DNA from: Anthoceros angustus
Taxonomy: Eukaryota; Plantae; Anthocerotophyta
Length of the DNA: 64,000 nucleotides
Direction of reading: 5' to 3'
NCBI GenBank assembly: GCA_010909165.1
Contig: MU008225.1
Location: 1-64,000 of the forward strand
The translations under genes were made by a program, and so were the position numbers. Numbering within the stretch: the first letter of the stretch is position 1; each line of letters begins with the position of its first letter. This document shows, piece after piece, positions 1,625 to 64,000 of this stretch. The notes below the pieces were generated by a model that saw only the letters and a program-made list of their open reading frames with translations, did no database searches and was not told where the DNA came from.

Positions 1625-2480
1625 TAACTATCATATTCGGGAGAACAAGGCTCTTACCAAGCAATTGGCAGCTCGAGAGGAGAAGGTGGAGCAACTTGCT
1701 CACATGGTGCGCACATGGGAAAAGAAGGCGGAAGACAAGCAAGTGCTGCTAATGGAGGAAAGGTCAAGACGAGAGCAATCTCTGCAGCAAATGAGGACAG
1801 CACAAAGGCAAGTAGGCGCACATGAGCGGGTCATAGCCACACAGGCTGTGAAGATTAGTGACATGGAAAAGGAGCTGGGAGAAATCCGCCGGAGGCTGGA
1901 ATTGAAGGAAGAAGAGCTGGAAGAACGGACACATTTTGTCCAAAGATTGGAAATGGAGCAGAAGTCCAACAAGGAGATGCACAACTCCCTAGGAGGATAG
2001 GGGAGTTGGAGGAAGAAATGGCAAAGGAGAAAGGCCGTCATGAGGCGGTGGTGCGAGCATATGTTGGCGGTGAGGAGGCGAGATTTGGTGATTATGCCCT
2101 ACAAGAGAGATTGATCCATGCTGCAGAATGAGAGGACGGAGAATGTGGCTCTCCATGTCAAGGCGGTGAGCTGGCCTTGGGCGAGATGCTTACAAAAGCA
2201 AGTGTGAGCATGGGTATGGCTTGAGGATTACGAATTGGAGATGGCACAACAACGATTTGCGGCCCATCTTCACAACAAGGTGCTCAAGGCCACTAACGAG
2301 TTGTTGCGACTTCTTTGAGAGGAGGATGTTGGGACCTCATGGCGATGATAGGGAGGCCCTCATGCAAGTCAACCGGAAGCCTTAGACTTGGAGAGTGTCC
2401 CAAGCAGGGGTGAAGAAACTTGGGGAAGCAGTGAGCGGGAAGCTGCAGTGGAGAATCACCCGGAAGGGGAAGAAGAAAGA
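1625..2480 (+). CDS. Frameshifted C-terminal coiled-coil part of the LTR-internal protein
   Basis: ORF 1665-2000 is E/K/R-rich heptad-like (AAREEKVEQLAHMVRTWEKK...ELKEEELEERTHFVQRLEME). The same peptide recurs at 50540-50860 (+) and 54170-56160 (-). Confidence 0.55.
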
Positions 2481-2482
2481 CC

Positions 2483-2572
2483 CGGTAGGAACTCCTACCG
2501 TGGTAGGAGGAGTTCCTACCGTGGTAGGAGGGACTCCTACCGTGGGAGAAGGTCCTACCATGGTAGGAGGCC
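2483..2572. repeat. ~21-bp-period array of the CCTACC(A/G)TGGTAGG palindrome
   Basis: Four to five units visible directly. CCTACCATGGTAGG is a perfect 14-bp palindrome. Confidence 0.85.
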
Positions 2573-3107
2573 GGGAGTTCAAAGGTTGCTAGCATGGATT
2601 GTGACGGCGGGAGGCAGTACCTTGGCCCTTGCGGAAAGAAGGAAGAGGGGTTGATCTTGCGGAATGGAGCAAGAATCACAAGGAGAAGACCAACCTCCTA
2701 ACATGGGTGCAGGGCAAGGAGCTCACTTGCTCCACAAGTGAGAAGGAGGAGAAGGCGAGGATGAGCCGGTGGCTAAGAGCCGGGCTATTTTATTGGAGGA
2801 AGGAACTCAAGATAGGCATCAAGATAAGGAAGGGATTCATAAGAAGTCCTTAAATTAGCTTGAAGACATGGGGCAAGATGCCACTTGGGAAGACTTTTCT
2901 TTAGAGGAGGACATTAATGCTTGTCACCCGAGAGTGTGTTGACTAGCTAGATAGGAATGTTGGCGAGCCATTAAGGCTCACATAGGTGAATTTTGCTAGA
3001 ATAGAATTTTACCCAAGATGCTTGGATGTCGAACTTAAATTAAATAGGATACACTAAAATAAGGAGTAAGGCGGTGCAGGAGGCGCGAGAGGCTGTGAGG
3101 ACCTCCC

Positions 3108-3113
3108 TATAAA
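3108..3113 (+). promoter_or_regulatory. TATA box of the canonical LTR promoter
   Basis: CCCTATAAAGGAGG about 850 bp from the LTR 3' end. Conserved at the equivalent position in copies at ~9520, ~10585, ~38583, 52120 and 53176. Confidence 0.6.
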
Positions 3114-4499
3114 GGAGGAGCTTGTGAAGTAAAATTATCGTGTCTTGCGCTCCCATCCTCCAGTCCTTCACTTTGTGCAGAATTTCGTCACGCCAACGCG
3201 ATGTCTCGTAGAGAGGAGAACGCGGTCGGAGTCGGGTGGAGGGCTTGCTCTTTGCAGCGCCCCTGCTGTGAATGGTTCTGTGTGAATTGTTTTGCTTTGA
3301 GTGTGTGGCGATGCTCAAGGAACTCTCGGCTTGAGGGTAGACTCAGGAAAGACTCCACGGAGGTTCTCGCTGTCTGGTACAAACCACATAGCGCCCAAGG
3401 AAGAACTCGTTAATTTCGGACGGACCCAGGCGGTTGTGCGTGGAATTAATGAGCCAATTGGTGTTAGAGTAGGAGATTGTGGAGGAAGGAAGGGTAGATG
3501 AGTAGAGAAGAAGAGGCGTTGTTGATTGAGAGAGTTGTGAGGAGAATTAGAGTGTAGGAAAAACGGAAGGCCACAGTCAGAGCCTAAGGGACGAATCCCA
3601 AATCTGCAAGTAAGAGGGCGCTCCCTGTGTGGAGAAGAGTGTCTTAGGAGTAGGGACGAAGTTGCGGTGTGGGTCAGGGGGTCCCTGGGCGCCCGTGATA
3701 GACACCTTGCTGTTAAGACGTAACCTGCAATTGTGTGGTGTCGTTGTAGGTTGAGGTTTGGTGAGTTCTGAGCGATGCAGCGTGCTGCTGTAGAGGCGTG
3801 AGAGGCGCCTTGCTTGTTTAGAAGGCTGAGGTAGTGTGTAGGCTGGTAGTGGTGATTTCTCAAGATTGTTCCACAAGTCTCATGGGACGAAACCCAGCGT
3901 CTAAAGCAGCGGTGGGATAAGTGTGGCGGAGAGGGTGCATCTCGAGCCCCGGATCTGCCTCCCACAATCTTTCGTGCGCCCCGCGTCCGTTCAACTAGAG
4001 GGGCCGGTGAGGCCGAGACGCGCCCACTCGATCGCAGCCGAGGCGATAGCCGAGGTCTCACGCGCTAATTGTGCTATGCACCCGGCTTACAACTCCCTTT
4101 TCTCTCTCTTTCAAGTAAAACAACTATCAGTTTTTGACTTTCGCACATTAAAGTGTTCGAGCTATTTTCCACCGTTTTACCAGAGTACTTTTAAAGTTTT
4201 ACGGACTTATGACATACTTCCTAGGTATATTCTACCGGAGTTGAAGGAGTGTACACCGGTGATTTTGGATGTGCCTGGTCTTCAGAGTAATATTTCTTCC
4301 TCTGCTCATTGTACGGCCCGGATAGAAAGTTTATCATTTCGAGTATCTCGTCCAAACGCGAATATTTCTACAGGCAATTACAATGTAAGAAACTGTGCAA
4401 ATTGAATATAACTATTCAAAATCTTATATACTAACCTCAAACAGTGCAAACAACTCCTTTTGATTCTTTGATAGCTACAAACAAAGGTAAAAACAGGTT

Positions 4500-7769: not shown

Positions 7770-7808
7770 CGCTTTCTCCACATTTCAAGGTCTTTTCCAC
7801 TTCCCGCT

Positions 7809-8074: not shown

Positions 8075-9776
8075 GGTTGGTTTCGATGGCTAAGTTTCTA
8101 GAGGTTAAAGGCGAAGATCCTCCTTATGTTTGCACCTTTGTTTGGTGTCGTCTTTTTTGTCTGTTCCTGGTTTTGCGCTGTTGTGCCAGTTGTTTTTCGG
8201 CCTCCTTGATTGTTGTTGATGTTGCGGCTGTCCTCTGTGTGCGGCGCTGTACTTCCTTGTCACGTTTGCTTGTTTACTTCTATCTCGCTTCTCGCCCATT
8301 TGTATTTCGTTTCGAACGCTGTTCGCTTTCGAACGATGTTGTTCGCCAAGGTCAAGTTTCGAGATTAAAGGCTGTCTTTTCCGTGTTGTTTTGTGTGGCG
8401 GTTTGCTCTCGCTTACCGCGCTGCTGTAAGTGTCCTTGTTTTCTAGTTTGTGTCCTATTGTCTGTACTGTTGTGGCATTTGCATGGCGGTTTTGCCGGTC
8501 TTCTGTTGGTATTGGTGCGTGTTTTTGCCGCTCAAAGGTTGTTGAAGGCCTTTAGGAGACGGTTTGTGTATGTTTGTTCATGGTGTTTGTGTGGTACCTG
8601 ATAAGGTCAGTTCTTCTCTTTCTGTCAAGGTTTGAAGTTTTGCGTGTCTTTCCTCTTGTTGTCGCTGTCTATATATGTCCGTATGTGCATTTCCAATGAA
8701 GTATGTCTGTGGGAGGGAAAACCCCGGGGCTTCCGAGGCTTCCCCCTCTAGCGGCCACACTTATCCCACTATCGCTCAGACGCTGTTTCCATGAGACTTG
8801 TGTAAAAGCTCGAGTCTTGTGGAAAACAATCACACACAACCATGACCTTCTAAACAAGCAAGGCGCCTCTACTCTCCCTCTGACTTGCACTGCCTCCTAA
8901 AATCACCAATCCTCGACCTACAATGACACAACACAATTGTGTGTCTTGCCTTAGCTGAGGAGCCTATCACGGGCGTCCAGGATCCACCGCACCGTCCTAC
9001 TTCAAAGACCAATCTTCTCCACACTGAGCGCCTTTTGCAGCATTTGGGATTCGTCGCCTTAGGCTCGCCTGCGGCCTTCCACTAGCACCACACTCTAATC
9101 CTCTTTTCATCTCCTCCTCTTCCTCCTATTAACCTCGCCTTCGCCTTGGCTCGCCTCACGGCACAACCGCCGCGAGGTCGCCCTACACCGGCAAGTTCTT
9201 CCTTGGGCCGGTTGCAGTTTGACACAGACAGAACCTCCAGAGTCTTTCCCTGTAGTCTACCCTCAAGCCGAGAGTTCCCTGGGCATTGCCACACACCCAA
9301 AGCAAAGCAATTTCACAGCAACCATTCACAAGGGGAGCAACTCGTTTAGGCACTTGCAGGGAGCAAGCCCTCCACCAAGCACTCCGACCACCGCGACTTC
9401 CTCTCTACCAGACGCTGTGTTGGCTCACAGCTGGCACAAAATTCCTTTACAACGGCAAAGGACTTGCGAGTATGGAAGCGCAAGACGTGATACTTTACTT
9501 TGTGAAATCCTCCTCCTCTTATAGGAGGCCTTCCACATACAACCTCCCTTGGGTGACCCTTCTGCAGGTCACCTTTTCCAATATTCTATTATTTCCTACC
9601 GCCAACATTTAAGGCTCATCTAAGTCTGCTGTCGATTCTTCTATTCCTCTTCACCTAAGATCATCCTTAAAGGATGTCACCATCTCACCTATCCTTCCTA
9701 TTCTCTCCTAGTTCATTTATGGCCTTTGACCATACCTAGTCCTAATCCTCTGAGGTAGGGCGTCTCCCATGGATTG

Positions 9777-12700
9777 TGTGGTAGGAAAACCCGGGGCTCA
9801 GATCCTCCCACTCTAGCGGCCACACTTATCCCAGCCCCGTGGGTTTCGTCCCATGAGACTCGTGTGTGAAAGTTTGAGGTCGTGATGATGCGATCGCTAC
9901 TGTTGACACACTTTCGGCCTTCTAAACAAACAGGCGCCCTACTCTCCCTCTTCAGTGCACTTGCTTTCAGAAAAATCACCAATCCTCGACCTACGACACA
10001 ACACAATTACGGGTCCTGCCTTAGCGAGGAGCCTATCACGGGCGCCGGGGACCCCCAGTCCACACGCATTTTGTCCCTACTTCTAAGACCACTCTTCTCC
10101 ACTCGGGGGCGCTCTTTTACTTGCAGTTTGGGATTCGTCCCTTAGGCTCACTGTGGCCTTCCACTAACACCTACCTCTAATCCTCTCTACTTCTCATCAT
10201 CCTCTTCCTCCTATTCTAACCTCGATTCGGGCTTCTTGCCGCTACTGGCTGCTGCACAGGTCGGCCTCCACCAAGTTCTTCCTTGGGCGGTTGCTATGAG
10301 TTTGACACACGGCGAGAACCTCCGAGTCTTTCCACTGGTCTACCCTCAAGCCGAGAGTTCACAGGCATTGCCACACACCCAAAGCAAAGCAATTTCACGG
10401 CAACCATTCACAAGGGAGCAACTCGTTTAGGCACTTGCGGTGAGCCCTCCACCAAGCACTCCGACCGCGACTTCCTCTCTACCGGGCGTTGGCTCACGTG
10501 CACGAAATTCCTTTAATGGCAAAGGACTCGGGGAGTATGGGCGCAAGGACGTGATACTTTACTTTGTGAAATCCTCCTCCTCTTATAGGAGGCCTTCCAC
10601 ATACAACCTCCCTTGGGTGACCCTACTGCAGGTCACCTTTTCCAATATTTTATTATTTCCTACTTGACATTTAATAGGCTGGCATCTAAGTCTTTATAGT
10701 CCTTGGTAAATTCTATTCTAGCAATTTCACCTAAGCTCATCCTTAAAGGATGTCAGCCTACCTCACCTATCCTTTCTATTATTCCTCTCATCATTTATGG
10801 TCTTTGACCATATCTAGTCTTCACCTTTGGGGTGGTGGAGCGTGTGGATTGGCTCCCTCGCCCTCCTTTTGCTCCCTTCGATCCTTGTCATCTTCCCAAT
10901 GTGTGGGGCAAGTACAATCTTGCCCCTTCCTCCATCTCATGAGGCGCCTGATTCCTGTCTCCGCGCCGCTCGGCCTCAGCGCCCTTTCCGCTCCTCTGTA
11001 GTCTGGCGGACTCTGGTGGTGACCATGGTAGTCGATCCTTCTCCTTCTTCTCTTCTTCTCCATCTGATGTCTCTTGGGTGGAATCTCCTTGCTCCTTTCC
11101 TCTGTTTGATTTGTCCATACCATGGAGCATTTCTCAAAGTCTTTCCCCAATTGTCGATGTCTAACTTCTTGGGCCCTTTTGCATCACTCTTCTCACTGGC
11201 TCTTCCCTTATCCGGGGTGAGGAATTTCCTACCCTCCCCTTCCTCGCGTGGGACCCGTCCTTGGTCTCCCGGTGGGGTTGTCTCCCCACCTCCTCTTCTA
11301 TTCCAGGGGGTGTGTCACTAGGCCCCGGCTCCTTCCTCGGCCGGCCTCAGCGGCTCCCAGCCAGCGGTGTGCCCACCCCGGTGGTCGCGGACTACGGCGT
11401 GGGGTTGTCTACCACGGTGGTCTGGCGGACTACCGTGGTGAGGTGTCACCGTGGTAGGTGACCCCGGGGCTGTCCCCCTCCTCCTTGCTCCTTTCGCTCT
11501 CACCTTACTCCCAGTTCCTCGAGTCCATGTCACTTAGCCTCGTGAGTAGGCCTTCCATTTACTGCTGGCTCCTTCCTCATCATCATCATGAGGACCAATG
11601 TCCTCCTCTTACCGTAGACCTCATTGTTGGCCTTCAAAATCTATTGTGGAGGTGAGCCCCTATGAATCGCATTTGGAGATCATCAATCTCCATCCTCTCC
11701 ATCCACCTACCCTTGTAGGCGTCTCCTTGGTGGTCAATTCTCCCACCTTGACATGGAGGTCACATTCTCCTCCCCTTCCTTGGTGGGCCAATTTTGCTGA
11801 AGGGCATAATCGCCCAAAACCTTCGCTTCCTTACTACCCGGCATCCACCACCTTCTTGTGGTGCTCCTCCTCTTGGAACCTCCTTTGTTCCTCGGCCATT
11901 GCTTGGCAAGTCTCTCCCTCTCCTCCACTTGCGCACCCTTTTGCTCAACTCTTGTAGTCTTGGTCTTGAGCCTCAGCTCAGCGCTTCTCCTCACTTCGTC
12001 GTCCCAATTCTTTCCATGTCCGGATCTTGATGGCTTGGGTAGCCATCACTTGTCGTCCATTTGTTGGACGCCACCTTCTCCTTCCTAGAGCCTCCGTTTT
12101 GCCCTTCTTCTTGCTCTAATTGGGCAAAATGCTCCTCCATATACGCCTCCAAGAGTCCCTTTGGGTTGTGCCGAATGGCTCTCCTCTGTTGTGACAACCT
12201 TCCCTCAGGACCTTCTCAGTTGATCCACAAGGTCATGGCTTCTCCACCTCTCCAGCTTGGCTGCCTTCTCGTCGGACTCCATGGCCTCCAATTGCCATTT
12301 GGTCCTGCCTTCCTCTCGGCCATGTCTTGGGCTTTGACTTCCTCTTGCATGCCCACAAGGAGGCTGCTAGCTCCTAGCCCCTTCAAATCCACATGGTGAG
12401 TGCTTCACAAGCACTCGGTCTCTAAGGGCCCAAATTCCCTGTTGGCCTTGAAATCTCCAGCTCCTTGCATTCGCGGCCATCCTTGGGTCCCCTCACAGTC
12501 GCCCCATCCGCCCTTCCTCCAGCGGTGGTGGTGGCCTGGCGCGCCCGCAGCTTGGCTTCTCCTTCCCCTTCCCCTCGAGGCTGCTTTCTACGTGGGGTGC
12601 CTCTGTGAGGCTGCTCCCCCCAGCGGTGGTCGCCTACCTACAGTGGTGGTGACTCCCGATGGTCGCCCTCCTGGGTGGTGCCTCCCTCAGGGTGGGGCGA

Positions 12701-14663
12701 GGTGCCTCTGGGCACAAAGCGAGATGGTGGGGACTCCCCCACCCTTGGGGCATCACCCCTCTGTGTAGTCCTCCTCTCATAGACTACCATTCGGCCTTCC
12801 TCGGCGGTTCTGTTCCTCTCCTCTTCCTTGCTCTGTGGGAAAAGATTCCCACTCGGCAACCTTGTTGCCTCTACATCCTCGCCCTTGCTCCTAGCATGCT
12901 TGTGGAGTCGACCTCCCAGTCTTCCTCAATGCAAAGGCAAGGCCTTTCCAAGCTTGGTGGAGATGGATTATCTCAGAAGGATGCCAAGCATCTTCCAACT
13001 CCTTGCTTGTGAGAAGTCCCTCGTTTCCACAAATGCACCAAATAGGTGCTAAGGTAGCAGGCCTTGGCCCTTCCTCATCCAGAATTTGCAGGAGCTTCTC
13101 CTGGTGGATGTATCTTCATAATGGTGTTCCCCAATCGGCTTGGCTCCCATGGAAATCTTCCACGGAGGAAGTTGGTCTTTGAAATAAGAAGTCCTTTGGT
13201 AATTCACCAACCCACAATCTTGCAAGAGCCTCCACTTGACTCCTTGATGCTCTCTTTTCCAGCCATTCTTGGCATGGGCCTTCACTCCTCCGTCCATCAT
13301 GTCGAGGAGCTCTTGCGGAATTTCGGAGAGTCCTCTTCCTCCATTCGACCTTCGAGGGAGCAACTTCGAGCTTTCCTCCTCCGGTCTCCCTGTCGAATGC
13401 TCCTTACGGTCCGGCGAGGATCCGTTCGAGCATTCCTTCGTGTGAGGGCGCCTCGATTGATGGAGTTGATGAAGCACTCCTCAATCAACTCCAAATTGGT
13501 GTAGGCCCATTGGCGTATACACCCATCAATTGGATGTTATCCTCCTCCGCCCATTCGAAAATCAAATCGCGGGGTTGGCACCGCAAAACAAGTGAATTGG
13601 GGCATTATAAATCGCCTCCCACAGCGTGGCGCTTTCTTTTCCCTTTCCTCCTCTCGAGGAGGAACCTTTTGTGGCTCCTTCCCTTGCTCTTCCAGTCGTG
13701 GCATGGCACCTTTCTCACTTCCAAGCGCTTCTAGGAGAATTACTCTCCAATTTGTGGGCTCCAAAGCTTTACTCCCAAACACTCCTTCCTTGTCACTGCA
13801 ATACCCAACAGGCACAAGTACACGTTAGCCACAGGCCTTCTAGCTAATTTCCTCGATTTCTCCTCCGGGGCAAGGTGAGCGCTTCCTCTTTCTCCTTAAT
13901 TTGCTCCTCCTCGTCTTCAATCCTTCAATCTCACAGCGCTAGGCTCCTCGACTTGGCTCCGCCCTTGTGATTCCCCGCGCTCCTTCCGCGCTTCACGGTA
14001 AACACCGTTGGTGTTCGGGCGCTCGATCTCCTCCTCCTCTCCTTAGCTAGGGTTTCCTCTGTTGCGCCCTCCTCTTGCTCACAAGTCGCGGTGATGGCGG
14101 CTTCCTTTTTTCGCGCTTCTACGCTCCGGCTCAGTCTCGGTCTTCGTGAAGTAGGCGCCTCGGCTCGAAGAGGAAGTTGGCGCCCCAAAGCGCACTTTGC
14201 CTTCTTTGGATGGCCACACAGGCACAACCCTAGATTTGGTTCATCATTTACAAAATCCTAATCCTATCTAAACGCCTATCTTTTCTATTCTCTACCCTAA
14301 TTAACCTATATATTTATTCCCCTATTGATGAGCATATATAGTGGATATCCCCTATATTCATTGCTTTTCTGGCGAGATCCGATCTACATGATAGTACGCC
14401 ACCCTTTACCGGCGTAGTGTGGCGACCTACGATGGTGAGTACGCCCTACCGCCCTTTGCCATTACGCGCTGGGGGTCGTTTTGACCCGTTCTTTGTCTTG
14501 GGATATCTTCTTCGACTTCCTAACAATATCCTACAACTTCAGCTTCAAGGTTTTCAGAAAATTTCCTGACATGCTCCTCTTCAATCATTTTTAGCCAAAG
14601 AAAATCAAACTTGTTTGCCTTCTGGCTCTTTTGGACTGGTTGCCCAAACTTTTGCGTTCCACA
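9777..14663 (-). mobile_element. Complete 4887-bp solo LTR, subfamily A (copy A2)
   Basis: TGTGG...CCACA termini with 5-bp TSD GATTG (9772-9776 and 14664-14668). Its right end GTTGCCCAAACTTTTGCGTTCCACA is identical to the PPT-adjacent end at 60941-60965. Confidence 0.9.
11560..14230 (-). CDS. Frameshifted LTR-internal coding region (globular domain plus coiled coil)
   Basis: Peptides NLELIEECF, KAHAKNG, FKDQLPP and CYLSTYLVHLW are conserved between diverged copies (12400-13600, 20570-21320, 56780-57400, 59050-59600). Confidence 0.6.
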
Positions 14664-15310
14664 GATTGGCTCTCTTGCCCTCTTTTTGCTCCTGTCCCCT
14701 CCCCAAATTCTGTCTTCTTCCTAGCTTGTGGGGCAAGTACCATGTTGCCCCTTCCTCCCCTTTCTGCGGGCGCCACATTCCTCTTGTCATGCGAGCAATC
14801 GCGCCCTTGGCTCGGGCGTCCATTTTCCAACCTCCGGCTGGCGCTCGCCTATAAGCACCCTACCGCGGTAGTCAGCGGACTTCACAAGGTGGTGACCACC
14901 TCTATGGTAGTCTGGTCCCCATCTCTCTTCCTTCCTTCCTCCTCATCGGTGGCGTCCCACAGGTTGGAATCCTCTTTGCTCCTTTCCTCACATTTGGTTT
15001 GTCCATACCTATCATGGAGCATCTTCAAGAGTCTTCATTCCCCGTTGCTTTGGTGATGTCGCCACTAACTCCTCCGGGTCCTCTTTTGCGTTGGTCTCCT
15101 ATCACGGCCCGGGCTCTTCCCTTATTCGTGGGGTGAGGAACTTTCACCCTCCTTCGGGTCGGACCCCGCCTCGATCTCCTCCTCCGTGGGCTGCTTCTCC
15201 ACCACCTGCCTCCTTCTCCGGGGTATGCCTGAACCCCGGCTCCTTCATCCCAGTTGGGCCGTTGACTCCCCATCGTGCCCCTCGCTGCGAGCACTGCCCT
15301 AGTCAGTAGA

Positions 15311-18300
15311 TGTAAACGATCGGACTCGGAAACCCCAGGATGTGCCTTGAAGTGTTTTTGTTTTTTGGTCAGTGTGGTGTGAAAATAAGTCGGGTTGTTG
15401 AGGCAAGGGTATTTATAAAAGCGTCCTTGGCCTATGGTTTTTCTTGTTTTATTTCTTAGGTTAGATAATAAAGGGAACTCGATGTTCCTTGGCCCATGGA
15501 CTTGGGATGTCCACTAAAGGTCTATATATGTGAGGTAGGGGGTTGGTATAATTAGGGAGTGATAGGTCTATGGCTTGGAGTTGGAAGTTAAATGATAGGC
15601 GAATGAGTGTGGGGTTGTGGATTGGTGTGGGCGGTCGCGGTCGAGAGCAGGGGTAGGGGAACACAGGAACTTAACCCTAGGAAATGTGATCCGTTCGGAC
15701 AGCAGGCCTGTGGTGGAGGCAAAGCGGCGCGATAGAGGCCCAGCAGTCGAGGAGTTGCATCCGGGAGAATACCGCGATCTGAGGCGCGAGGCGCACACGA
15801 GGGAAGGAGCTCAGAACCCCATCCGCGACGCGGTGAGCGCTAGGAGCGGCGGTTGGTGAGGTAGGAACCACAGGACCCGCGGGTAATTGCGTGATTTGGG
15901 CGCAGGCCGGGAGACTCTTGTGGAGGATGGCGCCCAAGGTCGCGAGATTGTGCTTGCTCCATGGCCAAACATGGATCATTGGAAAGTTCGGTGAGGGAAT
16001 TGGTGAAGGAGGTGAAGCTTCATGGAAGAACGGTGGAATTACATGAACTTGGGAGTGCGCGCCACAGAAGGACAAGCAGTGGGCGGGGAATTAGGCGAGT
16101 TGGGACACAGGTTGGTTAGGAGAGGGTGTATAGGAGGAGGGAGGCGGTTTGGTGATGGAGCCGTCCGGAAAAGAACCACACAGTTAAAGTGATTGGGGAA
16201 TAACGGTTTGCTTATTGTGTGATTGATGGAGTGCAGCGGATGGCTCCTATGTTTCTGCAGCACAAGAAGCGGATTATTTGTCGACCACTTCTGCTGTTCC
16301 TTCCATGAAGTGGTCAAGGGCAATCGATTGGGGACGAATTCTCTTCGACAAGTTGTGTGAAGAGAGGTTGAACTTGATTTCTCCTACCCCTCGACCCTCT
16401 CTAATTTCACCATTTCGGTCCATCTTTATGTGCATGCTAGCGCACGCGGAGGTGGAAATTGGCCTCCCTCCACATGTGGAAGCCGGTTAGGGAGGTGAAA
16501 TGGAAGGCGGAGGAGCCCAAGGAGGAAATCGAGGAAAAATCGGATAGGCGAGTCGTGGCGGCAGGCGATTCGAGGAGAGAAATTTCTACCAGGAGGAAGA
16601 CCGGGGTGGAAGGCGGGCCTCGTGAAAAGGTGAAGGCGGGCCGCGTCACCGGTCAGCAGGCGCGCTTCTGAAAATGAAGGCCAAGCAGCGGTTGAGGTGG
16701 CGGAAGAGGCGCGATCCAGGAGGACAATTTCTTGACGGATCACGGATGATGAATCAACCCGGAGGGTTAGGGTGACCTCGAGCGGACCCCTCCTCGGCAT
16801 GGGAAGAGATTTTCAAGGGACTCCAGCGGAGGTGGATGCAAGCCGAATTGGTGAGTGCGCACCCTTTGGAAGGAAAGTTCTCGGCGGAGGGATGGCGTGG
16901 CGCGGGCCGCCACAACAAGTGGACTGAGGCCGCCATCGATGATCCGGGCCCAAGCGGTTGTTGGATCAAGCGGCTTTAGCTCTCCACAGCTCGGTGTGCA
17001 AGGGCGGCGGGAAGTGGTGAAGGCCGGGTTTGAAGAGGAGGCCAAGCGCAAGCAGAGGAAGACAAGCGGGTCTAGAGGAAATAAGGGCCAAGATTGAGAA
17101 GATTTGTCGGGGCCGGGAGAAGTTGCAGAGCCATGGCAGGCAGCGGGAAGCTCATGGCTCAAATTAAGGATGCCCAGGCAGAACCGGAGATGTTGTTGCG
17201 AGCCGGGAGGCGGGCGGCCTCGGTGGAAGGCCCATAGGCCAGTATATAAGCGGAGGCGGGATGAGGCACGTGGCGGGCGAGAAAAGACAAAGGGAAGAGG
17301 AAGCGGGGACACGGACCAGGGGTAGTGGAAGGAACTACGAGCGAAGGAAGCGGCAAGGTGGCAAACACCTACGAGGTTCTTTGAGCGAGCGACGATCGTG
17401 GAGTCCTCTGATGTGGGCTACCGACATTGGCGCAACCAGCCGGTCATGGCGGAACAGCGGGGCTGACGCGGCACCCGCAGGACATGGACCGAGCAGCAAC
17501 GGTGTAGCCTCACGGGAGGAGGGTAAGCACCTCATGCAGGGAGGTCCCATTATGTTGCACATGGATGAGAAACTTATGTTCGGTCTATATGTGAATGGAG
17601 CAGCGTGCTTAACCTTTATCCATGTGCGTGTGGAAATAGGAGGGATCGGGGCCTACCTCACAAGTGAGGACCCAGTGCATACTTCTACCATGCGCAGTGT
17701 GGGGTTGGCCCCTATTATCACGGGCGACTTTGGAGGAGTTAAGTGAGGAGGAGGTCCGAGCTTGGGTGGGCGAGGCAGTAATAATCCTCGGCAATAGGCG
17801 GCAAGCGGAAGGCGGAAGCTCGGCGTACACCTCAAATTAGGGCGTCAGCGGTGGTGAGGTGGAAGTATTGTGGGAAAACACATCGGATCGGTGGAGGGCT
17901 CGTGGCGGCGGTGGAGGCGAAGGCCAGGGCCAGAGTCGAGATAAGCGTGGCGGAGGTGATAGCATCCTAAGGATAGATTTGGTTAGGATCTTGCACTGGA
18001 CCTAGGCGCTCGGTGTGGGCGCGTCCCTTTGATAGCCATCTTAGGACCTAAAATCCGGGGCATGGCGCGCCCGGGTATAAGAGGCGGTTATGCCTCTCAC
18101 GTGAGATAATTTGGTTGAGATCCCCACTGCTGTGGCTGGTTGGAGGCGTCCAATTAGCGGAGGCGGTGTGCGAGGCAGCTCCTAGGAATGGTCGAGAGCT
18201 TGCTCCTGGAGGAGGAAGGGATGGGCGTCTTGGCGACAAGGGGAGGAACAAGGGATTGGCGGGCGGGTGCAGGCTTGCTCTGCGCTGCTTGTGGCCACAG

Positions 18301-18995
18301 GCTCTTCTCCCTTCCTTCTTTCCTCGCTGGTTGTGTTCAATTGAGGGTGTGTGAGTGGTGGATGCAGGCGAAGGGGAGGAGAGAGAGAAGGAGTGAGAAG
18401 CGGTGGGAAGGAGATTAAATCTTGTCGATGCGAGGTGTGAGATCGTGAGTGGGAAGGAAGAGCATGGAGAGGTCATGGTGAATTGTGTGTGAATCGCGAA
18501 TTGAGCGGTCTTTTGCGGAAGTGCGCGCATGGGGCGTGTTTCAGGAGGAAATAAGGTGGTGTGGCGCCCGTGTGTGTGTGCATGTGTGTGGATTGAGGGT
18601 AGGAGGCCTAGGTCCCTGTCGAATCGGTGGGCATAGTGTGGGGTAGAATATCACGGACTACGGTGGGGACAACCCGTGCGAGATCCAGCCTTGAGTCGCT
18701 AGGGTTTGGTGTGGGACCCACCTCGGTGTTGTTCCACTACACGGTAGTGTGCGGACTACCGGTAGTAGAGCAGGGGGCAGTCGGGAGTTAGATCCGTGGT
18801 AGTTGGACAAGGCGGAGGTAGTAGTAGTTGAGTAGATAGGTGTGAGGTGGTAGCGGTGTCCCGGCGACTTAGCTAGGCGGTGGTAGTGATGATAGAAGCG
18901 TCTCTTGGCACAAACCATTCCCTTGGGAATCCCGGGACTAGCGACATTGAGGGTGAATGTGGACCTCCGTGTCTCGGGACACGAGATTCCACTGG
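15311..18995 (+). mobile_element. ~3.7-kb solo-LTR-like insertion (family B) containing coding remnants
   Basis: Starts TGTAAACG and is flanked by GTAGA at 15306-15310 and 18996-19000, after which the host LTR resumes. The 3' end (CCACTGG) is not a clean CA. TATA-like boxes at ~17245 and ~18076. Peptide IDWGRILFDKLCEE at ~16320. Confidence 0.65.
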
Positions 18996-21535
18996 GTAGA
19001 CTAGGCGTGGTGGCGGCCTAACGGTAGTCGCGGTCTGGTGGTGGGGTGACCCCCTATGGTTGTCCCCCTCCTTGCTTTCGCGCCATCTTCCTTCTTGGGC
19101 AGCGGTTCTCCTCTCCTTGACTCTCAGGACTCCTCGGAGTCCATGTCATAGCCTCATCAAAGTCACAGGGCTCAGGCACTTTGCAGCTCCTTCCTATCAT
19201 CATCATGAGGACCTATTGTCCTCCTCTTATGGCCAACGCCGTTGTTGGCCTTCAATATCCTGTTGTGAAGATGGGCGCCCAGACTATGATATTGCATTTG
19301 GAGATCATCCAATTCCGTGGGCCACTCTCCATCTTCACACCTACCCTTGTAGGCATCCCTTGAGGTGGTCGATTCTCCCACCTTCACATGGAGGGTCACA
19401 TTCTCCTCCTGTGCTTCCCTCAGCTGGTTGGCCAACTTTGCTTGAAGGGCATAATGCCACACCTTAAACCTTCCTCACCACCGATTCTATGCACCACACC
19501 TATTACGGTGCTCTTCCTCCTGGGACCTCCTCCTCCAAGTCCCTAGTTGTTGAGCAAGCTCTTCCCTCTCCGCTTGCAAGCACTCTTTCGCTCCAACTCC
19601 TACGTTCTTTGGTCTTGAGCTTCTAGCTCACGCTTCTCCTCCAAATTATCTGGGTTCTTATTCTTCTTCCATGTCCGGATCTTGATGGCAGTAGCCATCA
19701 CTTGTTCTTGTATCCACTTTGAACACTTTGTTTTTCTCCCTAGAGCCTCGATTTGCTCTTCCTTTCACGCTCTAGGTGGGCAAAGTGCTCCTCCGCCTTT
19801 TGCCTCCATGAGTCCCGATTGGGTAGTCATCGACAGCTCTCTTGGTTTGAGCCAACCTTCCCTCCAAGACCTTCTCCACTTGATCACAGGTGTGAAGCTT
19901 CTCCACCTTCTCCAACTTGGTGCCTTCTCATCGGACTCCATGGCCTCCAATTGCCATTTGGTCCTGCTCTCCTCTGTCATCTCTTGGGCCTTATTAAGAT
20001 TTCCTCTGACATGCCCATAAGGTGGCATTAATTCCCTAGCCCCTTCAAATCCACTCGGGTGAGTGCCTCATAGCACTCATGCAAATCTCTAGGGGCCCAA
20101 ATTCCGCCCTTCGGCCTCTTCTTTGAAATTTCCAGCCTTTCCACTCCTCGGGCCATCGGCGATGGCGTGAGCCCTCGCCTGCTTACCCCATCCGCTCGCC
20201 CGGTAGCGGTTGATAGTGGCTTTGGCGCCGCCCATGGCCTTCCTTGACGCCCTTCCTTCTTTCCGCGTAGAGGCTAACGCCTCGCGGTGGGGTGAGACCC
20301 CCGCGTGCTTTGCACCTCACGTGATAGGGGTGGCGCCTACCACTGATGATGCGCCTCCCCACAGGAGTGGCTCACGGTGCCTCTTCCTAGGCACCCACGA
20401 GATGGTGGGACTCCTCCACCCTTGGGGTAAATCACCCATCTGGTGGTGGTCAGCCCCTCATAGACTACCACTTGGCCCTCATGGCCAGATCTTGCTCCCC
20501 CTTCCTTGCTCCTCTTGTGGGAAGGCCTCCCACTCGCGGCCTTGTTGCCTCCGCCTCCTCACTCTCGGTCCCTAGGGTCCTTGTGGGTTTGTCCTCCCAT
20601 GGTCTTCCTTAGGCAAAGGTAGGGCAGCTCTAAGCTTGGTGGAGGTGGATAATCTTGAAGGATGCCAAGCATCCTCAAGCTCCTTCTTGGGAGCCCCGTC
20701 CCACAAATGCACCAAATAGGTGCTAAGATAGCATGGCCTTGGCCCTTCCTCATCCAGAATTTGGCTAAGAGCTTCTCCACATGATGATGTAGGCCTCATA
20801 CATGATGGTGCCCCAATCCGGCTTGGCTCCTCGAAATCTTCCACAAAAAGCGGAGGAAGTTGGTCTTTGAAATAAGGTTGATAGTTACCAACCCCAACAC
20901 AATTTTGGCAAGAGCCTCCACTTGACTCCTTGATCTTGTCAGTCTTCAAGCCATTCTTGGCGTGGGCCTTCACTCCTCAGTCCATCATATCTAGGACCTC
21001 TGCGGAATTTCGAGAGGAAATCCTCTTCCCTCCATTTGTCCTCTCGAGGAAAGCAATTCCTCTCCTCCTCCGGTCTCCCATACACTTGGCGAATACTCGG
21101 ATGTCGGCCGGATCGGTCCAGGCATTCCTCTCAACCGGCAAGGCTCTTCCGATTGATGGAGGTTGATGTAACACTCCTCAATCAATTCCAAATTGGTGTA
21201 GGCCTACTGGCGGCCATACACCCATCCCAATTGGATGTTCTCCTCCTCCGCCCATTGCCTGAAATCTACCAAGTCTCTAGGATTGAGCTGCCCTGCAAAG
21301 CATGTAAATTGTGGCGTCTCAAAATCTTCTCCCCCTGGCGGCGCAGCTCCTGGTGCTGGCAAGGAGGAGCCCTTGGCGGGCGGTTCCTTCCCCCTGCCCT
21401 TAGCAGCTCGAGGCATGGCGCCTTTTCACGCAAACTGCTGCCAAGGAAGGGAGCTACTCCCCAATTGCGAGTTCTCTCGCCCTTCTAGTGTCTCAGCCCA
21501 GAAAACACCCCTGGTGGAAAGCAACTTTGTCACAC

Positions 21536-37200: not shown

Positions 37201-37267
37201 TTGGAAAAGATGTCATTCCGATTGATGGAATGAAATGATCCTAGCGAGGAAACAATGAGGAAGAACC

Positions 37268-37732: not shown

Positions 37733-39778
37733 TGTGGGAGGAGAAAACTCCGGGTCTTCGAGGCTTCCCCTCTAGCGGCCACACTTATCCCACTTTGTCC
37801 AAATGGTCGTTGGGTTTCGTCCCATGAGACTTGTGTGAAAGTTCGAGGTCTTGTGATAATATCGCTACTGCGGTGACACACTTCGACCTTCTAAACAAGC
37901 AAAAGGCGCCTCTACTCTCCCTCTTACGGTGCACCACTTGCCTTTGCTCAGAAAATCACCAATCCTCGACCTACAATGCGACACAACACAATTGCGAGTC
38001 CACCTTAGCGGTGAGCCTATCACGGGCGCCGGGGACCCCAGTCCACACACAATTTCAGTCCCTACTTCTAAGACCACTCTTCTCCACTCGGAGGCGCCCT
38101 TTTACTTGATTTGGGATTCGTCCCTTAGGCTGCCTGTGGCCTTCCACTAACTCTACCTCTAATCCTCTACTCATCTCCTCCTCTTCCTCCTATTCTAACC
38201 TCGGGTTCGGGCTTCTTGGTTCGGCTCGCCCTTACGGCTGGCCACAGGGTCGGCCTCCACCGACAAGTTCTTCCTTGGGCGGTTGCTATGAGTTTGACAC
38301 AGACGGCGAGAACCTCCGGAGTCTTTCCTGTAGTCTACCCTCAAGCCGAGAGTTCCAGGCATTGCCACACACCCAAAGCAAAGCAATTTCGCAACCATTC
38401 ACAAGGGAGCAACTCGTTTAGGCACTTGCGGTGAGCAAGCCCTCCACCAACACTCCGACCACCGCGACTTCCTCTCTACCCGGGGTTGGCTCCTGGTAAG
38501 CACGAAATTCCTTTACAAGACAAAGGACTCGGGAGTATGGGCAAAGACATGATACTTTACTTTGTGAAATCCTCCTCCTCTTATAGGAGGCCTTCCACAT
38601 ACAACCTCCTTGGGTGACCCTCTGCAGGTCACCTTTTCCAATATTCTATTATTTCCTACATGACATTTCTGGCATCTAAGTCTCTTGCGATTGGTAAATT
38701 CTATTCTAGCAACTTCACCTAAGATCATCCTTAAAGGATGTCGACATCTCACCTATCCTTTCTATTCTCCTACTCAACATTTATGGTCTTTGACCATACC
38801 TAGTCCTCACCTTCTTTGGGATAGTGGCGTGTCCGCGTGGGTTGGCTCCCTCGCCTCCTTTGCTCTGCGCCCCTTCCCGGATCTTGTCATCTTCCCTGTG
38901 TGGGGCAAGTACAATTTTCCCCTTCCTCCGACTCAGCGGTGGCCACGATTCCCCTCATCATCCGGTGTGCACCCCTTTCCCCTCAGGCGCCCTTTAGCCT
39001 CAGCCTCACGGCGCTCCTTCTTTCATCACCCCACTTGGTAGTCGGCGGACTAAGGGGTAGGTGACTTACCTACCATGGTAGTCGGTCCCCTTCTCCTTTC
39101 TTCCTTCCTTTTCATTGGCGATGACCCTTGGGTTGGAATCCTCTTTGCTCCTTTCCTCCTGTTTGGTTTGTCCATACCTATCATGGAGCATCTTCAAAGA
39201 GTCTTCATCCCCCATTTGCTGGCCGATGTCGCTACTAACTCCTCCGGGCCCTTTTCGCGTTGGTCTCCTCTCCTGGCCCGGGCTCTTCCCTTATTCGTGG
39301 GGTGAGGGAACTTCTCACCCCTCCCCCTTCCTCGACGGGTCGGATCCCGTCCTTGTCTTCCACCGGTGGGGCTGTTTCTCCCACCGCCTCGTCTCCTTCC
39401 CTAGGGGTATGCGATCGGACCCCCTGGCTCCTTCAGCCACAGCCAGGCCTTCACGGCCCGACTCCCCATCGGGCCCCTCGCCGGGTACCTTCCCCACCGG
39501 TGTCCAGCGACCACGGCGGTTGTGATCTACCGCAGTAGTCTGGCGGACTACCCGCTGTAGGGTGGTCACCTCTGTTAGGGTGACCCCCTATGGCGGGCTC
39601 CCCCTCCTTGCTCTCCACACCATCTTCCCCCAGGCGCGGCTCCTCCATCTCCACCATCTCCTCGGACTCCTCGGGTCCATCACCTCGTGGCCCCGTCAAA
39701 GTCGGGAGGCCTCAGCACTTGCCTGCAGCCTTCTTCCCCGCCATCATCATGAGGACCCAATGTTCTCCTCTTGTGCCA
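37733..39778 (-). mobile_element. Truncated long LTR, subfamily A (copy A3)
   Basis: Starts TGTGGGAGGAGAAAACTCCGGG, is colinear with 9777-11610, and breaks abruptly at ~39778. Confidence 0.85.
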
Positions 39779-50109: not shown

Positions 50110-52299
50110 ATGTTCACGGTAGGAGAGAAAGGAAGTCATGGTTTGAAGCTCCCAAGCGAGATAAGAAGGCAACGGGCCTTAGGCGGGCGAGCGGATGGAG
50201 TCACGGAGGGGTTGCCCACCAAGTGATGAGCGGGAGCTCGTCATAAGGAGGTAAGGGATGTAAGATCCCATGAGAAGGCAAAGGCCTTGAGTCTCCCGGA
50301 GCAAGGGAGGAGACTTGGATATGTTGGAGGAGATGCACATAGGGGAAATGCTCAAGGTAGATATGGAAGCGCCAAGAGGAGGGTCGAATTCTTGAAGGAA
50401 GTGAGAAGACAAGAACCTATCAAGCAAGAGAAGTTGGGTAGGCGAAAGGAACCCAACGCAGGAGGATACCATGAGGATGGAAGCTCAAGTGGAACACTTG
50501 GAAAAGAATCTTGAAGCAAGACAACGAGAGGTGGACAACTATATTAGAGAGAACAAGGCTCTTACCAAGAAGCCCGGAAGAAAAGGTGAAACAACTTGCC
50601 CACATGGTGCATACATAGGAGAAGAGGCGTAAGACAATCATGCCGATGGAGGAGAGGAAGAAACAAGACAAGTCCTGTATAAATGAGGGCACAAAGGCAA
50701 GTGGAAGCACATGAGCAAGTCATGGCCACACAAGCTATGAAAATCCTTGACTTGGAAAGGGAGTTGGGGAAATCCACTAGGAGGTTGGAACTAAAGGACA
50801 AAGAGCTGGAAGAACGAGAATGGAGATGGAGCGAAGTCCAGTGTAGAGAATGCACAACTCCCTAGGAGGATAGCGGAGTTGGAGAAGGAGATAATGAGGA
50901 GGAAGACCGCCATGAGGCGTTTGTGTGACTATGTTGGTGGTGAGGGAGCGAGATTTCTGATTATGCCCTACATGAGAAGTTGATCCACCGGCCGCAGAAA
51001 AGAGTGGAGAATGTGGCTCTCCACGTCAGGATAGGTGAGTTGACCCTGGAGCGAGACGCTTTCAAAAGTAAGTGTGAGCGTGGAGTATGGCTTGAGGATT
51101 ATGAAGAATTGGAGATGGCACAACAATGATTTGCAGCCCATCTTCACAACAAGGTACTCAAGGCAACTAATGAATTGTTGCAACTTCTTGAGAGAAGGAT
51201 GTTGGGTCCTCATGATGATGATAGGATGCCCTTATGCAAGTCCAAACAAAGCCTTAGACTTGGAGAATGCCCCAAGCAACATGGGTGAAGGAACTCGCAA
51301 CAGAGAAGGAGCGAGAAGCGGAGAGGCTTCACAGAGGAAAGAACCACCTCATGAAGGGGTGGTGAAGAAGAAACGGCCCCGGTAGGAACTCCTACTGTAG
51401 GAGGAGCTCCACTGCGAGGGAGCTCTACCTGGTAGGAGGAGCTCCTACAGGAGGAGCTCCACTGGTAGGAGGAGCTCACTGCAGGAGGAGCCTACTGGGA
51501 GGAGGAGAGCTCCTACCTCTGGTAGGAGGAGCTCCACGTAGGAGGAGCTCCTACCAGCTCACTGCAGGAGGGGAGGAGCAAAAGAATTCAAAAGTGCTAG
51601 CATGGATGTGACAGGAGGAGGCGAGCACTCGGCCCGCAGAGAAGGAGAAGGGGTGGTTGATCTTGCGTGAATGGACTTACAAGGAGAAGGCCAACCTCCT
51701 AACATGGGAGCAGGAGCAAGGAGCTCACTTGCTCGACAAGTGAGACAGAGGAGCAGCCGAGTGAGCCGGTGACTAAGAGAGCCTGGGCTATTTTATTGGA
51801 GGAGGAAGCTCTAGGTAGGCAACAAGATAAGAAGGCAACAAGATTCATGAGAGTCCTAGATTTAGCTTGAAGACATGGGACAAGATGCCACTTGGAGGAG
51901 ACTCATAGAGGAACAAGCATAAATGCTTGTCAAACCAAGAGTGGTGTGTTGACTAGCTAGATAGGAACTTTGTGATGAGCCATTAAGGCTCACGAGGTGA
52001 AGTTTACTAGAATAAATTTTACCAAAGATGCTTCAATGTCGAACTTAAAGTCCGGTGAGGATACACTAAAATAAGGTGTGAGGCAAGGAAGGCGTAAGGG
52101 AGGTCATATGAGGTCCTCCTATAAAAGGAGGGAGCTTGTGAAGTAAAATTTCGTGCGCCTCCCATCCTCCCAAGTCCTTCGCTTTGTGTGCAAGAATTTC
52201 GTGCTGCAAGCCAACGCGGTTTGGTAGAGAGGAGAATGCGCCGAGTGCCGGGCGGAGGCTTTCGCAGCGCCCGCCACTGCTCCCCTTGTGAATGGTTGC
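50110..52299 (+). mobile_element. Partial long LTR, subfamily D (diverged), interrupted at 52300
   Basis: Colinear with 1620-3280 and with the reverse complement of 53000-55080. TATAAAA at 52120. Expanded GGTAGGAGGAGCTCC repeats at 51380-51570. Confidence 0.85.
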
Positions 52300-55200
52300 T
52301 GTGGAGGAAAACCCCGGCACTCCGAGATTCCCCTCTAGCGGCCACACTTATCCCAGCTGCTTTGACGCTGGGTTTCATTCCATGAGACTTGGGAACTACG
52401 AATCTTGAGAACCACCACCGCAGCTACACACTACCTCAGCCTTCTAAACAAGCAAGGCGCCTCACGCCCTCTACAGAGCCACGCCGCCTGCATCGCTTCA
52501 GAACTCACCAAACCTCAACCTACAACCCACACACAATTGCAGTGTGCCTTACGAAGGTGTCTATCACGGGCGCCTGTGGACCCCCGACCCACACCGCAAC
52601 TTCGTCCTACTCCTAAGACACTCTTCTCCACTGTGGAGCGCCTCTTACTTGCAGATTTGGGATCTGGCCTTAGGCTCGCCTGTGGCCTTCCGTTTTTCCT
52701 ATACTCTAATTCTCCTCACAACTCTCTCAATCAACAACGCCCTCTTCTTCTCTACTCATCTACCCTTCCTTCCTCCACAATCTCCTACTCTAACATCGAT
52801 TGCTGGCTCATTAATTCCAACTCGCCCTTACGGCACAACTGCATCCGTCCGGAAATTAACGAGTTCTTCCTTGGGCCGGTTGCTATGCGGTTTGTACCAG
52901 ACAGCGAGAACCTCCAGGGAGTCTTTCCCTGCAGTCTACCCTCAAGCCGAGAGTTCTTTGAGCATCGCCACACACTCAAAGCAAAACACCACAAAGAACC
53001 ATTCACAAGGGGAGCAGCTAGGGCGCTGCAAAGAGCAAGCCCTCCACCCGACCGACCGCGCGTTCTCCTCTCTCTACGACACTGCGTTGGCTTGCGACGA
53101 AATTCTGCACAAAGTGAAGGACTCGGGAGGATGGGAGCGCAAGACACGATAATTTTACTTCACAAGCTCCCTCCTTTTATAGGGAGGTCCTCACATACCT
53201 CTGGCGCCCTCCGCACGCCTTACTCCTTATTTTAGTGTATCCTATCGATTTTTAAGTTCGACATCCAAGCATCTTGGGTAAAATTCTATTCTAGCAAAAT
53301 TCACCTATGTGAGCCTTAATGGCTCTGCCAACATTCCTATCTAGCTAGTCAACACACTCTCACGACAAGCATTAATGCCCTCCTCTAAAGAAAAGTCTTC
53401 CCAAGTGGCATCTTGCCCCATGTCTTCAAGCTAATTTAAGGACTTCTTATGAATCCCTTCCTTATCTTGATGCCTATCTTGAGTTCCTTCCTCCAATAAA
53501 ATAGCCGGGCTCTCTTAGCCACCGGCTCATCCTCGACTTCTCCTCTTCCTCTCACTTGTGGAGCAAGTGAGCCTTGCTCCCTGCACCCATGTTAGGAGGT
53601 TGGTCTTCTCCTTGTGATTCTTGCTCCATTCTGCAAGATCAACCCCTCTTCCTTCTTTTCCCGCAAGGGCCAAGGTACCGCCTCCTTGCCGTCAAATCCA
53701 TGCTAGCAACCTTTGAACTGCTTCCGCCCTCCTACCATGGTAGGACCTTCTCCTACCACGGTAGGAACTCCTCCTACCACGGTAGGAGTTCCTACCGGGT
53801 CCTTTCTTCCCTCACCTTCCCGGGTGATTCTCTCCCTGTGCAGCTTCTCCGCCACTTGCTTCTCCAGGTGCAAGTTTCTTCACCCCCTGCTTGGGACACT
53901 CTCCAAGTCTAAGGCTTCCGGTTGGACTTGCATGAGGGCCTCCCTATCATCTCATGAGGTCCCAACATCCTCCTCTCAAGTCGCAACAACTCGTTAGTGG
54001 CCTTGAGCACCTTGTTGTGAAGATGGGCTGCAAATCGTTGTTGTGCCATCTCCAATTCGTAATCCTCAAGCCATACTCCATGCTCACACTTGCTTTTGTA
54101 AGCATCTCGCTAAGGCCAGCTCACCACCTTGACATGGAGAGCCACATTCTCCGTCCTCTCATTGCCATGGATCAATCTCTCTTGTAGGGCATAATCACCA
54201 ACCGCCTCCTCACCGCCAACATATGCTGCACCACCTCATGACGGCCTTTCTCCTTTGCCATTTCTTCCTCCAACTCCCCTATCCTCCTAGGGAGTTGTGC
54301 ATTCTCCGTTCTTTGGACTTCTGCTTCCATTTCCAATCTTTGGACAAAATGTGTCCGTTCTTCCAGCTCTTCTTCCTTCAATTCCAGCCTCCGTGGATTT
54401 CTCCCAGCTCCTTTTCCATGTCACTAATCTTCTGACTGTGGCTATGACCGCTCATGTGCGCCTACTTGCCTTTGTCTGCCCTCATTTGCTGCGAGATTGC
54501 TCTTGACCTTTCCTCCATTAGCAGCACTTGCTTGTCTTCCTTCTTTTCCATGTGCGCACCATGTGAGCAAGTTGCTCCACCTTCTCCTCTCGAGCTGCCA
54601 ATTGCTTGGTAAGAGCCTTGTTCTCCGAATATGATTGTTTGCCTCCTGTAGCCTTGTTTCAAGACTCTTTTCCAAGTGCTCCACTTGAGCTTCCATCCTC
54701 ATAACATCCTCCTGCCGCTGGGTTTCCGCTCGCCTACCCGCAATTTCCCTTGCTTGGTAGGTCCTTGTCTTTTCCGCCTCCGTCTTCAAGAATTCAACTC
54801 TCCTCTTGGCGGCTCCTATGTCTACCTTGCTGAACATCTCCCTTATGCGCAGCATCTCCTCCAACATGTCTAAGTCTCCTTTCTTACCTCCGGAGACTCA
54901 AGGCCTTTGCCTTGCTCATGGGATCTTACATCCCTTGCTTCCCTATGATGAGCTCCCGCTCATCCGGTGGGCAACCTCCCACCGTGACTCCGCTCGCCCA
55001 CCTAGCAGGGCCGGTTGCCTTCTTATCTCCCTTGGGAGCTTCCAAACCGTGACTTCCTTTCCTCCTACCGTGGTAGGAGGTGCTCCTACCAGTAGGAACT
55101 CCTCCTACCGTAGGAGTTCCTCTCGTTTCTTCTTCCTTACCCCTTCACAGGGTGATTCTCTCCACACAGCTTCTCCCGCTTCACTTGCTTCTCCACAGTG

Positions 55201-60965: not shown

Positions 60966-60979
60966 TACTCCCCTCCTCA
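60966..60979 (-). promoter_or_regulatory. Polypurine tract (duplicated at ~60995-61008)
   Basis: Minus strand TGAGGAGGGGAGTA immediately precedes TGTGG. Confidence 0.85.
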
Positions 60980-61029
60980 CTGTTTGCGTCCACATACTCC
61001 CCTCCTCACTGTTTGCGTCCTCGCAAACA

Positions 61030-61720
61030 CAGATCTCTGAAGGTACTTCTTAACCTTCCACCCATTCACTCTAGTTGGCCAAATCCCCATCCGGCTGCGT
61101 GGTTGCGGATCCATTCTCATACTGCCACCACCTCATAAGGTCCCATCCATCTCAATCTAAGCTTCCAGGAAGTCCATATAACGGCTATCATATAGAAGAA
61201 CCAAATCCCGGCCATGATAGCTTCTTGCTTCCTCAACTTCCCATCATGCCTATCCTTTCTAAGCTCTGAATTTGAGTTTCTTCTAAAGCATCTTCCCTCG
61301 TTCCTCATGCTCTATGAAAGACTCTAGTCTAACTTCCCACTATCCTCTGATCATCGCTCATCCTCCATGATTCTATAGGTAGGTACTTCAAATTCCAGCA
61401 TCACGGAGACATGCCATATGTTAAATAATAAGAGGTCTTCTTGGTTGTCACCTTCACTCTCCTAATGCCTGCATCTAAGATCTTCTTCACCGTGATTTGC
61501 TGAATAATGGCCCAACCTCTTACGCATGCAAAGCTTCTTTAAGAAGCTTCCTTCCTTCAAACAACGTCGGATCTTCTCATCCAAACCAAGCTTGTATAAG
61601 ACCCCATCTCTTAGACAATAAGGCTGCTCTAGGGAGAAAGACAGCACGCCCTTCCCTAGACAAACTATCCAACATGATTCCGTGCTCCAAGAAATTTCAT
61701 ACCTCACCATTCAATAACAT
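61030..61720 (-). pseudogene. Ty3/Gypsy integrase N- and C-terminal fragments (core apparently deleted)
   Basis: Y.LRDGVLYKLGLDEKIRRCL...GHYSANH (61462-61710) and KLRLRWMGPYEVVAV (GPY/F motif, ~61120-61165). Confidence 0.8.
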
Positions 61721-61729
61721 GGACATGGG

Positions 61730-63900: not shown

Positions 63901-64000
63901 ACACCTCCCAGACTCCAATATCCGGCGTAAACAAATGCCTGCAAGCGGGATGTACTATACAGACTTGGGCACACAAGCGCCTCAGTCCTCTAACAAGCAA

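Follow-up and report, generated by a model that had tools for sequence, protein, structure and literature searches.

Whether a long terminal repeat (LTR) of a plant retrotransposon can carry a gene of its own is the question raised by a 4.9-kb unit in the genome of Anthoceros angustus (Anthocerotophyta; assembly GCA_010909165.1), located within the first 64,000 nucleotides of contig MU008225.1, which are the stretch analyzed here and are referred to as the window. The window is a repeat-dense eukaryotic sequence with 51% GC and one N, and the analysis rests on the family copies found in it (A, B, C, D1, D2 and D3; Table 1), one set of short-read contigs and database searches. The unit, copy A, is very probably one LTR holding a gene under selection. 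On balance, we favor the fuller reading of a solo LTR from a probably Athila-like Ty3/Gypsy family, in which the gene likely lies in the U3 (unique 3') region and its product is a predicted DNA-binding anti-silencing factor.

Table 1. Coordinates of the features of copy A, the other family copies and the adjoining internal region in the 64,000-nucleotide window.
Feature	Position	Strand	Remarks
Copy A	9777..14663	-	4,887-bp solo LTR; minus-strand sense; inserted into an older member of the same family
Left target-site duplication GATTG	9772..9776		exact
Right target-site duplication GATTG	14664..14668		exact
LTR 5' end	14640..14663	-	24 bases identical to the polypurine-tract-abutting end at 60965
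TATA-like sites upstream of gene	14305..14340	-	14340 and 14312 in A; D1 counterparts at 60474 and 60254
Frameshifted coding region	11500..13704	-	about 730 codons, ~2.2 kb; 3' end approximate
Conserved domain	12900..13640	-	NLELIEEC, PDWG (in B and D), CYLSTYLVHLW, ELEDAWHP
Coiled-coil-like tail	11540..12450	-	peptides common to B and D; selection not significant
Family palindrome CTACCRYGGTAG, one-mismatch copy	11409..11420		in A; looser cores at 11022, 11432 and 11448
TATA box	10580..10587	-	conserved in 6/6 copies examined
Putative R/U5	9777..10555	-	no coding signal; boundary set 30 bases below the TATA box
Copy B	8708..21466	-	older member in three pieces: 8708-9776, 14664-15310, 18996-21466
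Copy C	37733..39772	-	truncated, 3' part of LTR
Copy D1	52300..60965	-	3' LTR, 8,666 bp, from a diverged subfamily; order of parts as in A
Copy D2	1626..3966	+	truncated 3' part; coiled-coil frame, TATA box, LTR end
Copy D3	50115..52304	+	inverted partial copy directly against D1, 78% identity
Polypurine tract	60966..60978	-	abuts the D1 5' end; inside a 29-bp tandem duplication
Deleted internal region	60979..64000	-	presumed gag-like near 63650; presumed integrase-like at 61605 and 61164-61043

The original prediction, made from the bases alone, had delimited one inserted unit by its TGTGG and CCACA ends and a GATTG target-site duplication, and all of these proved exact, the unit running from TGTGG at 9777 to CCACA at 14663. 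The GATTG site is present once at the matching position of copy C and once in the interior of copy A itself; as it is single at these empty sites, the duplication around copy A was made by insertion. The receiving sequence was copy B, an older member split by copy A and by a second insertion; to the left of copy A it aligns with 9777-10833 at 80% identity, and to the right the alignment resumes at 10847. Because the target duplication is perfect and copy A sits on top of copy B, copy A is relatively young.

The unit had been called an LTR on the claim that its end was identical to the end abutting the polypurine tract of the element at 60965, and this identity was found to be exact over 24 bases (14640-14663 and 60942-60965; two matches in the window, 0.00 expected), which supports the LTR assignment. 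The likeness between the 5' ends of A and D1 extends over ~190 bases at 71%. In D1, a 3' LTR with the same layout, the 5' end adjoins the polypurine tract and lies 80 bases below the last integrase-like motif. The LTR 3' end is common to 5/5 copies (at 8708, 9777, 37733, 52300 and 3966), each with a different, unrelated flank, and a primer-binding site was seen beside it in none of these five. Short-read contigs covered the end of copy B (n = 29); among six of the nine loose ends, those that were listed, one read end-TTT-TGG and one end-TTT-T, as would be expected where a 5' LTR meets a primer-binding site, of which only three bases are visible. These contigs come from a single DNA run (share 0.11), possibly of the source sample, and so are not independent of the assembly. 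No direct repeat was found between the two ends of copy A, and the diverged-subfamily copy, at 72% identity, keeps the same order of parts, so the stretch 9777-14663 represents one LTR. Two other element classes were ruled out: a DNA transposon with terminal inverted repeats, given inverted ends of just 5 bp and a purine tract directly beside one of them, and an element of the terminal-repeat retrotransposon in miniature or large retrotransposon derivative type (TRIM/LARD) with paired short LTRs, given that no repeat exists between the ends.

Inside this LTR, the coding region begins at a candidate ATG at 13704, common to copy B, and continues through a basic N-terminus, the conserved domain, a low-complexity linker and a coiled-coil-like tail, with peptides common to A, B and D reaching about 11570. 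Conservation of the coding part among diverged copies, as originally proposed, was confirmed for the peptides NLELIEEC (13497-13474, minus strand; four exact occurrences in the window) and CYLSTYLVHLW (13059-13027, minus strand; three), while its length was corrected from 2.5 kb to about 2.2 kb (13704 to about 11500). That this part encodes a protein is borne out by selection at 12900-13640; copy A holds no open frame, the longest stop-free stretch on its coding strand being 143 codons, and the coiled coil that had been named as well was not significant. The tail appears to be coding from the peptides that copies have in common and from D2, in which one frame is clearly rich in heptads.

The selection tests compared the ratio of nonsynonymous to synonymous differences (pN/pS) with a permutation null that had frame picking built in; a distance-corrected ratio (dN/dS) was set aside because synonymous sites were near saturation and picking the best frame lowers the ratio in non-coding controls. 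For 12900-13640, comparisons with copy D1, of the kind that had been suggested as a check, gave pN/pS values of 0.25 and 0.24 against null medians of 0.50 and 0.52 (p = 0.002, sense strand only); these were the two significant results among 20 tests. For A-D1, 43% of the substitution pairs in gap-free blocks of this region were in phase, and for B-D1 45%, versus 35% expected (p = 0.001 each); the A-B value was 44% (p = 0.07). Controls from the R (repeat) and U5 (unique 5') part, on the sense strand, were not significant (p = 0.79-0.97). Purifying selection was found in the N-terminal third of the gene (12900-13640) and only there.

The place of the gene within the LTR is indicated by two sets of promoter-like sites. 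The TATA box and its conserved context stand 810-880 bases from the LTR 3' end, below the gene, in 6/6 copies, and from this conservation the site at 10587 is likely the main promoter of the element. Copies A and D1 also have weaker TATA-like sites ahead of the gene, which constitute a possible internal promoter. The simplest reading is a gene in U3 with an internal promoter, and a U3 location is probable, the TATA box being what places the gene there; the earlier statement that the gene lies upstream of the TATA box stands, although the second set above the gene fits R/U5 too. Visual inspection of the sequence between gene and TATA box revealed no convincing older purine tract.

A tentative family assignment comes from the region adjoining D1. 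The element at 60965 had been labeled Gypsy, a label suggested by integrase-like motifs; the internal fragments had no match in the Pfam searches, and the gag-like and integrase-like names used for 60979-64000 are presumptive. The motifs at 61164 and 61066 precede the purine tract in the minus-strand sense, and what we take to be a GPY motif (61164-61135; no Pfam or protein match) is followed by a last motif at 61043. The latter is only 65 bases from the purine tract, which would leave no room for a chromodomain. The family is likely Athila-like Ty3/Gypsy. Within 60979-64000 the sequence passes from gag-like to integrase-like pieces in less than 3 kb; protease, reverse transcriptase and RNase H were not seen there, and a 400-bp duplication is present (61749-62133 and 62573-62962); this internal region is likely a non-autonomous derivative. 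D1 itself (52300-60965) contains two tandem duplications, one of 1.3 kb and the other of about 2.2 kb, at 90% identity and with junctions at palindrome arrays, which reflect either template switching or assembly error; D1 would measure about 5,150 bp in their absence. The arrangement of D3 against D1 is either a nested insertion or a fold-back artefact.

Searches for the identity of the protein were blank throughout. A phmmer search of 1.84 billion representative proteins returned two matches, both tandem-repeat proteins that were rejected as homologues, and word-seeded protein searches yielded 0/70 candidates, none, and 0/7,993. Pfam gave no match for the LTR gene or the internal fragments in 23 + 18 + 15 + 12 translations, the single curated-level match in the window being a Copia reverse transcriptase elsewhere; PF03078 and PF20167 in particular matched neither nine full frames (stops as X) nor open fragments, in which frames are correct only in short stretches. 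Neither the PDB sequences nor the metagenome and viral contig collections contained a match to the product or related loci, respectively. No RNA run was among the sequencing runs listed as containing the sequence; one contig of a possible RNA run matched over 24 and 21 bases, which was taken as chance. All these negatives carry little weight, since any one frame can be trusted over short distances only. A single-sequence fold of a 110-residue piece was unusable (predicted local distance difference test score, pLDDT, 42.8). The motif order LIEECF, DWG, YL..YL..LW resembles, as a lead only, the Transposase_32/Athila ORF-1 group; with no database match and no usable fold, any relationship to Athila ORF-1, Transposase_32 or VANC is a likeness of motifs only.

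A second family-specific feature is a 14-bp palindrome, CCTACCRYGGTAGG, which, with up to one mismatch, occurs 21 times in the window, always inside family copies (0.03 expected): 19 times in D, once in B and once in C. Its 12-bp core occurs 25 times, once in A. Most of the copies belong to arrays on either side of the gene, upstream and downstream, and some lie in the linker.

In published descriptions of plant elements, extra open reading frames (ORFs) belong to the internal region, where they lie either 5' or 3' of gag-pol (PMC7264820, PMC6317226, PMC4408406, PMC3485330, PMC11728184). Non-chromoviruses are known to include elements with sense 3' extra ORFs and LTRs that reach about 5 kb (PMC6317226), and nothing further on extra ORFs was found in PMC13468544. 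A plant case of a gene within an LTR did not appear in the literature surveyed, which comprised titles and abstract openings, with few subscription papers and exclusive of supplements such as the element tables of PMC6317226. Among OTA non-chromoviruses, the 3' extra ORFs Athila ORF-1 (PF03078) and Transposase_32 (PF20167) have the same sense orientation and lie 3' of the integrase (PMC6317226, PMC11728184, PMC7264820); the elements also have LTRs of about 5 kb, a 5-bp target duplication, and a domain with a coiled coil, and the gene described here shares with these ORFs both the sense orientation and purifying selection. They sit, however, between pol and the LTR, whereas the present gene is downstream of the polypurine tract, inside the LTR. 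The sag gene of mouse mammary tumour virus is located mostly in U3, stays in solo LTRs and is selected (PMC4667437), a layout that the present gene probably shares, but it belongs to an animal retrovirus and has an immune function, whereas here a retrotransposon gene of ~730 codons is involved and no sequence link was found. In VANDAL elements, as here, an accessory protein coexists with a short family-specific motif arrayed in non-coding parts, and VANC proteins bind such arrayed family-specific motifs (PMC5735166); VANDALs are DNA transposons and the VANC21 motif is not palindromic, while in our family binding to the palindrome is a prediction. VANC has been linked structurally to MAIN, and coiled-coil oligomers have been predicted for the Athila domain (PMC13547354). 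Retrosat2/RIRE3 ORF0 and Ogre resemble the present family in having LTRs >3 kb, many solo LTRs and an extra ORF selected less than pol, although ORF0 is described upstream of gag-pol and not in the LTR (PMC3485330, PMC4408406).

Other accounts of the locus have to be weighed against a selected gene in the U3 of a solo LTR. It is very unlikely that 9777-14663 is a rearranged or non-autonomous element, in which pieces of a short LTR would enclose an internal extra ORF, or that it is a chimera of the assembly: the assembly is noisy, D1 has tandem duplications and no short-read contig bridges the whole unit, but the ends share no direct repeat, the purine tract is upstream rather than downstream of the gene, and the diverged copies A, B and D1 share one order of parts, with an exact target duplication and an empty site. 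If the TATA-like sites near the 5' end, which in A and D1 precede the candidate ATG, were the main promoter, the gene would fall in R/U5 and its ORF would come first on the genomic RNA, much as a 5' extra ORF does; this is unlikely, given that 6/6 copies keep the TATA box at 10587 together with its context, that the 5' 0.9 kb of A and D cannot be aligned beyond 190 bases, and that minus-strand strong-stop DNA of >4 kb would be needed. A sizeable possibility, not far short of even, is that the gene worked in ancestral elements, that copy A and the majority of solo copies have since died and that solo LTRs express nothing, which is compatible with the explanation we prefer. The nested, repeat-dense surroundings and about a dozen frame changes within 0.75 kb of copy A agree with such decay; on the other hand, copy A is relatively young, and the insertions and deletions (indels) occur window-wide, as is typical of long-read error. 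Near-identical duplicates in the window differ by 1.1-1.9 indels per substitution and the short-read contigs show numerous single-base indels relative to the window (12 among those listed, 97 more), and therefore much of the breakage is likely sequencing error.

Several observations weigh against the reading of a solo LTR with a selected gene for a DNA-binding product. Many frameshifts break the gene in all window copies, no intact element with two LTRs was seen within the window, and the visible part of the primer-binding site is limited to three bases. Both significant selection results share copy D1; the A versus B comparison gave p = 0.056, and neither the coiled-coil zone (p = 0.34 and 0.07) nor the linker (p = 0.49) was significant. 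No homologue, Pfam family, PDB match or usable fold was found for the product. The palindrome is dense in subfamily D (19/21) and sparse in copy A, and repeated LTR motifs are often host transcription-factor sites. It is accordingly a credible alternative, though one that falls short of probable, that the gene in the LTR serves particle assembly, nuclear import or RNA handling and that the palindrome is a host transcription-factor site. The extra ORFs of plant elements are heterogeneous and their function is not known (PMC6317226, PMC7264820), Athila-domain proteins are predicted to oligomerise via coiled coils (PMC13547354), and no fold or homologue links the product to VANC; family-restricted palindrome arrays and a basic N-terminus, in turn, fit a nuclear DNA-binding protein. 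By analogy, we tentatively propose the DNA-binding, anti-silencing role.

A solo LTR with a selected U3 gene could have arisen from an ancestral 3' extra ORF that sat between pol and the 3' LTR, as is usual for such elements. A shift of plus-strand priming to a purine tract ahead of the extra ORF would draw the ORF into U3, and reverse transcription would copy the gene into both LTRs; recombination between the LTRs would then leave it behind in a solo LTR, where the TATA-like site preceding it might allow independent transcription. The earlier expectation that every solo LTR would retain an accessory gene holds true of the DNA. The conserved domain may contact the palindrome in a dimeric or oligomeric form held together by the coiled coil, and the bound product may counter host silencing of the family.

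Two further nested units were noted in the window. The 3.7-kb insertion in copy B (15311-18995) has a 5-bp duplication (GTAGA), a TG start and no CA end, with TATA-like sites around a coding-like plus-strand stretch; its IDWG and PSLISPF motifs (16323-16415) weakly recall the family domain, and in a frameshift-tolerant search tile 16001-17000 was joint second among 68 non-family tiles. The unit at about 21536-25770 (ends approximate) contains a tandem array (21651-21809), TATA-like sites on both sides and a long coding-like plus-strand stretch with LVREY at 22507; tile 22001-23000 ranked first among the 68 tiles, with a score of 198 (mean 132, standard deviation 19), and this unit is possibly another gene-bearing LTR. 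Elsewhere, a 345-codon frame at 45194-46231 encodes a Copia-type reverse transcriptase (RVT_2, E 2.3e-48), Copia-like sequence was recognized by eye near 36000-37250, and a TCTCTTC microsatellite of about 26 copies lies at 37271-37453. The stretch 6800-8707, in which copy B was inserted, is repeat-like, with several CCGAAGGCCAAGG motifs and a 265-bp duplication.

LTRs are usually regarded as non-coding sequence, and a solo LTR as the point at which element removal ends. Should a family keep a selected gene in its LTR, the main host removal route, LTR-LTR recombination, would leave a high-copy gene, and annotation that seeks extra ORFs only between LTRs would overlook it. A broader and rather doubtful extension is that in early-diverging land plants several non-chromovirus families moved an accessory gene into U3, their solo LTRs becoming combinations of promoter, gene and palindromic binding sites. 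Were this true, the nested units at 15311-18995 and about 21536-25770 would be further families of like design, and the solo LTRs would form a dispersed, recombination-proof anti-silencing circuit acting in trans on the whole family. With a conserved domain and a defined palindrome, the long-open function of Athila-type extra ORFs would become directly testable.

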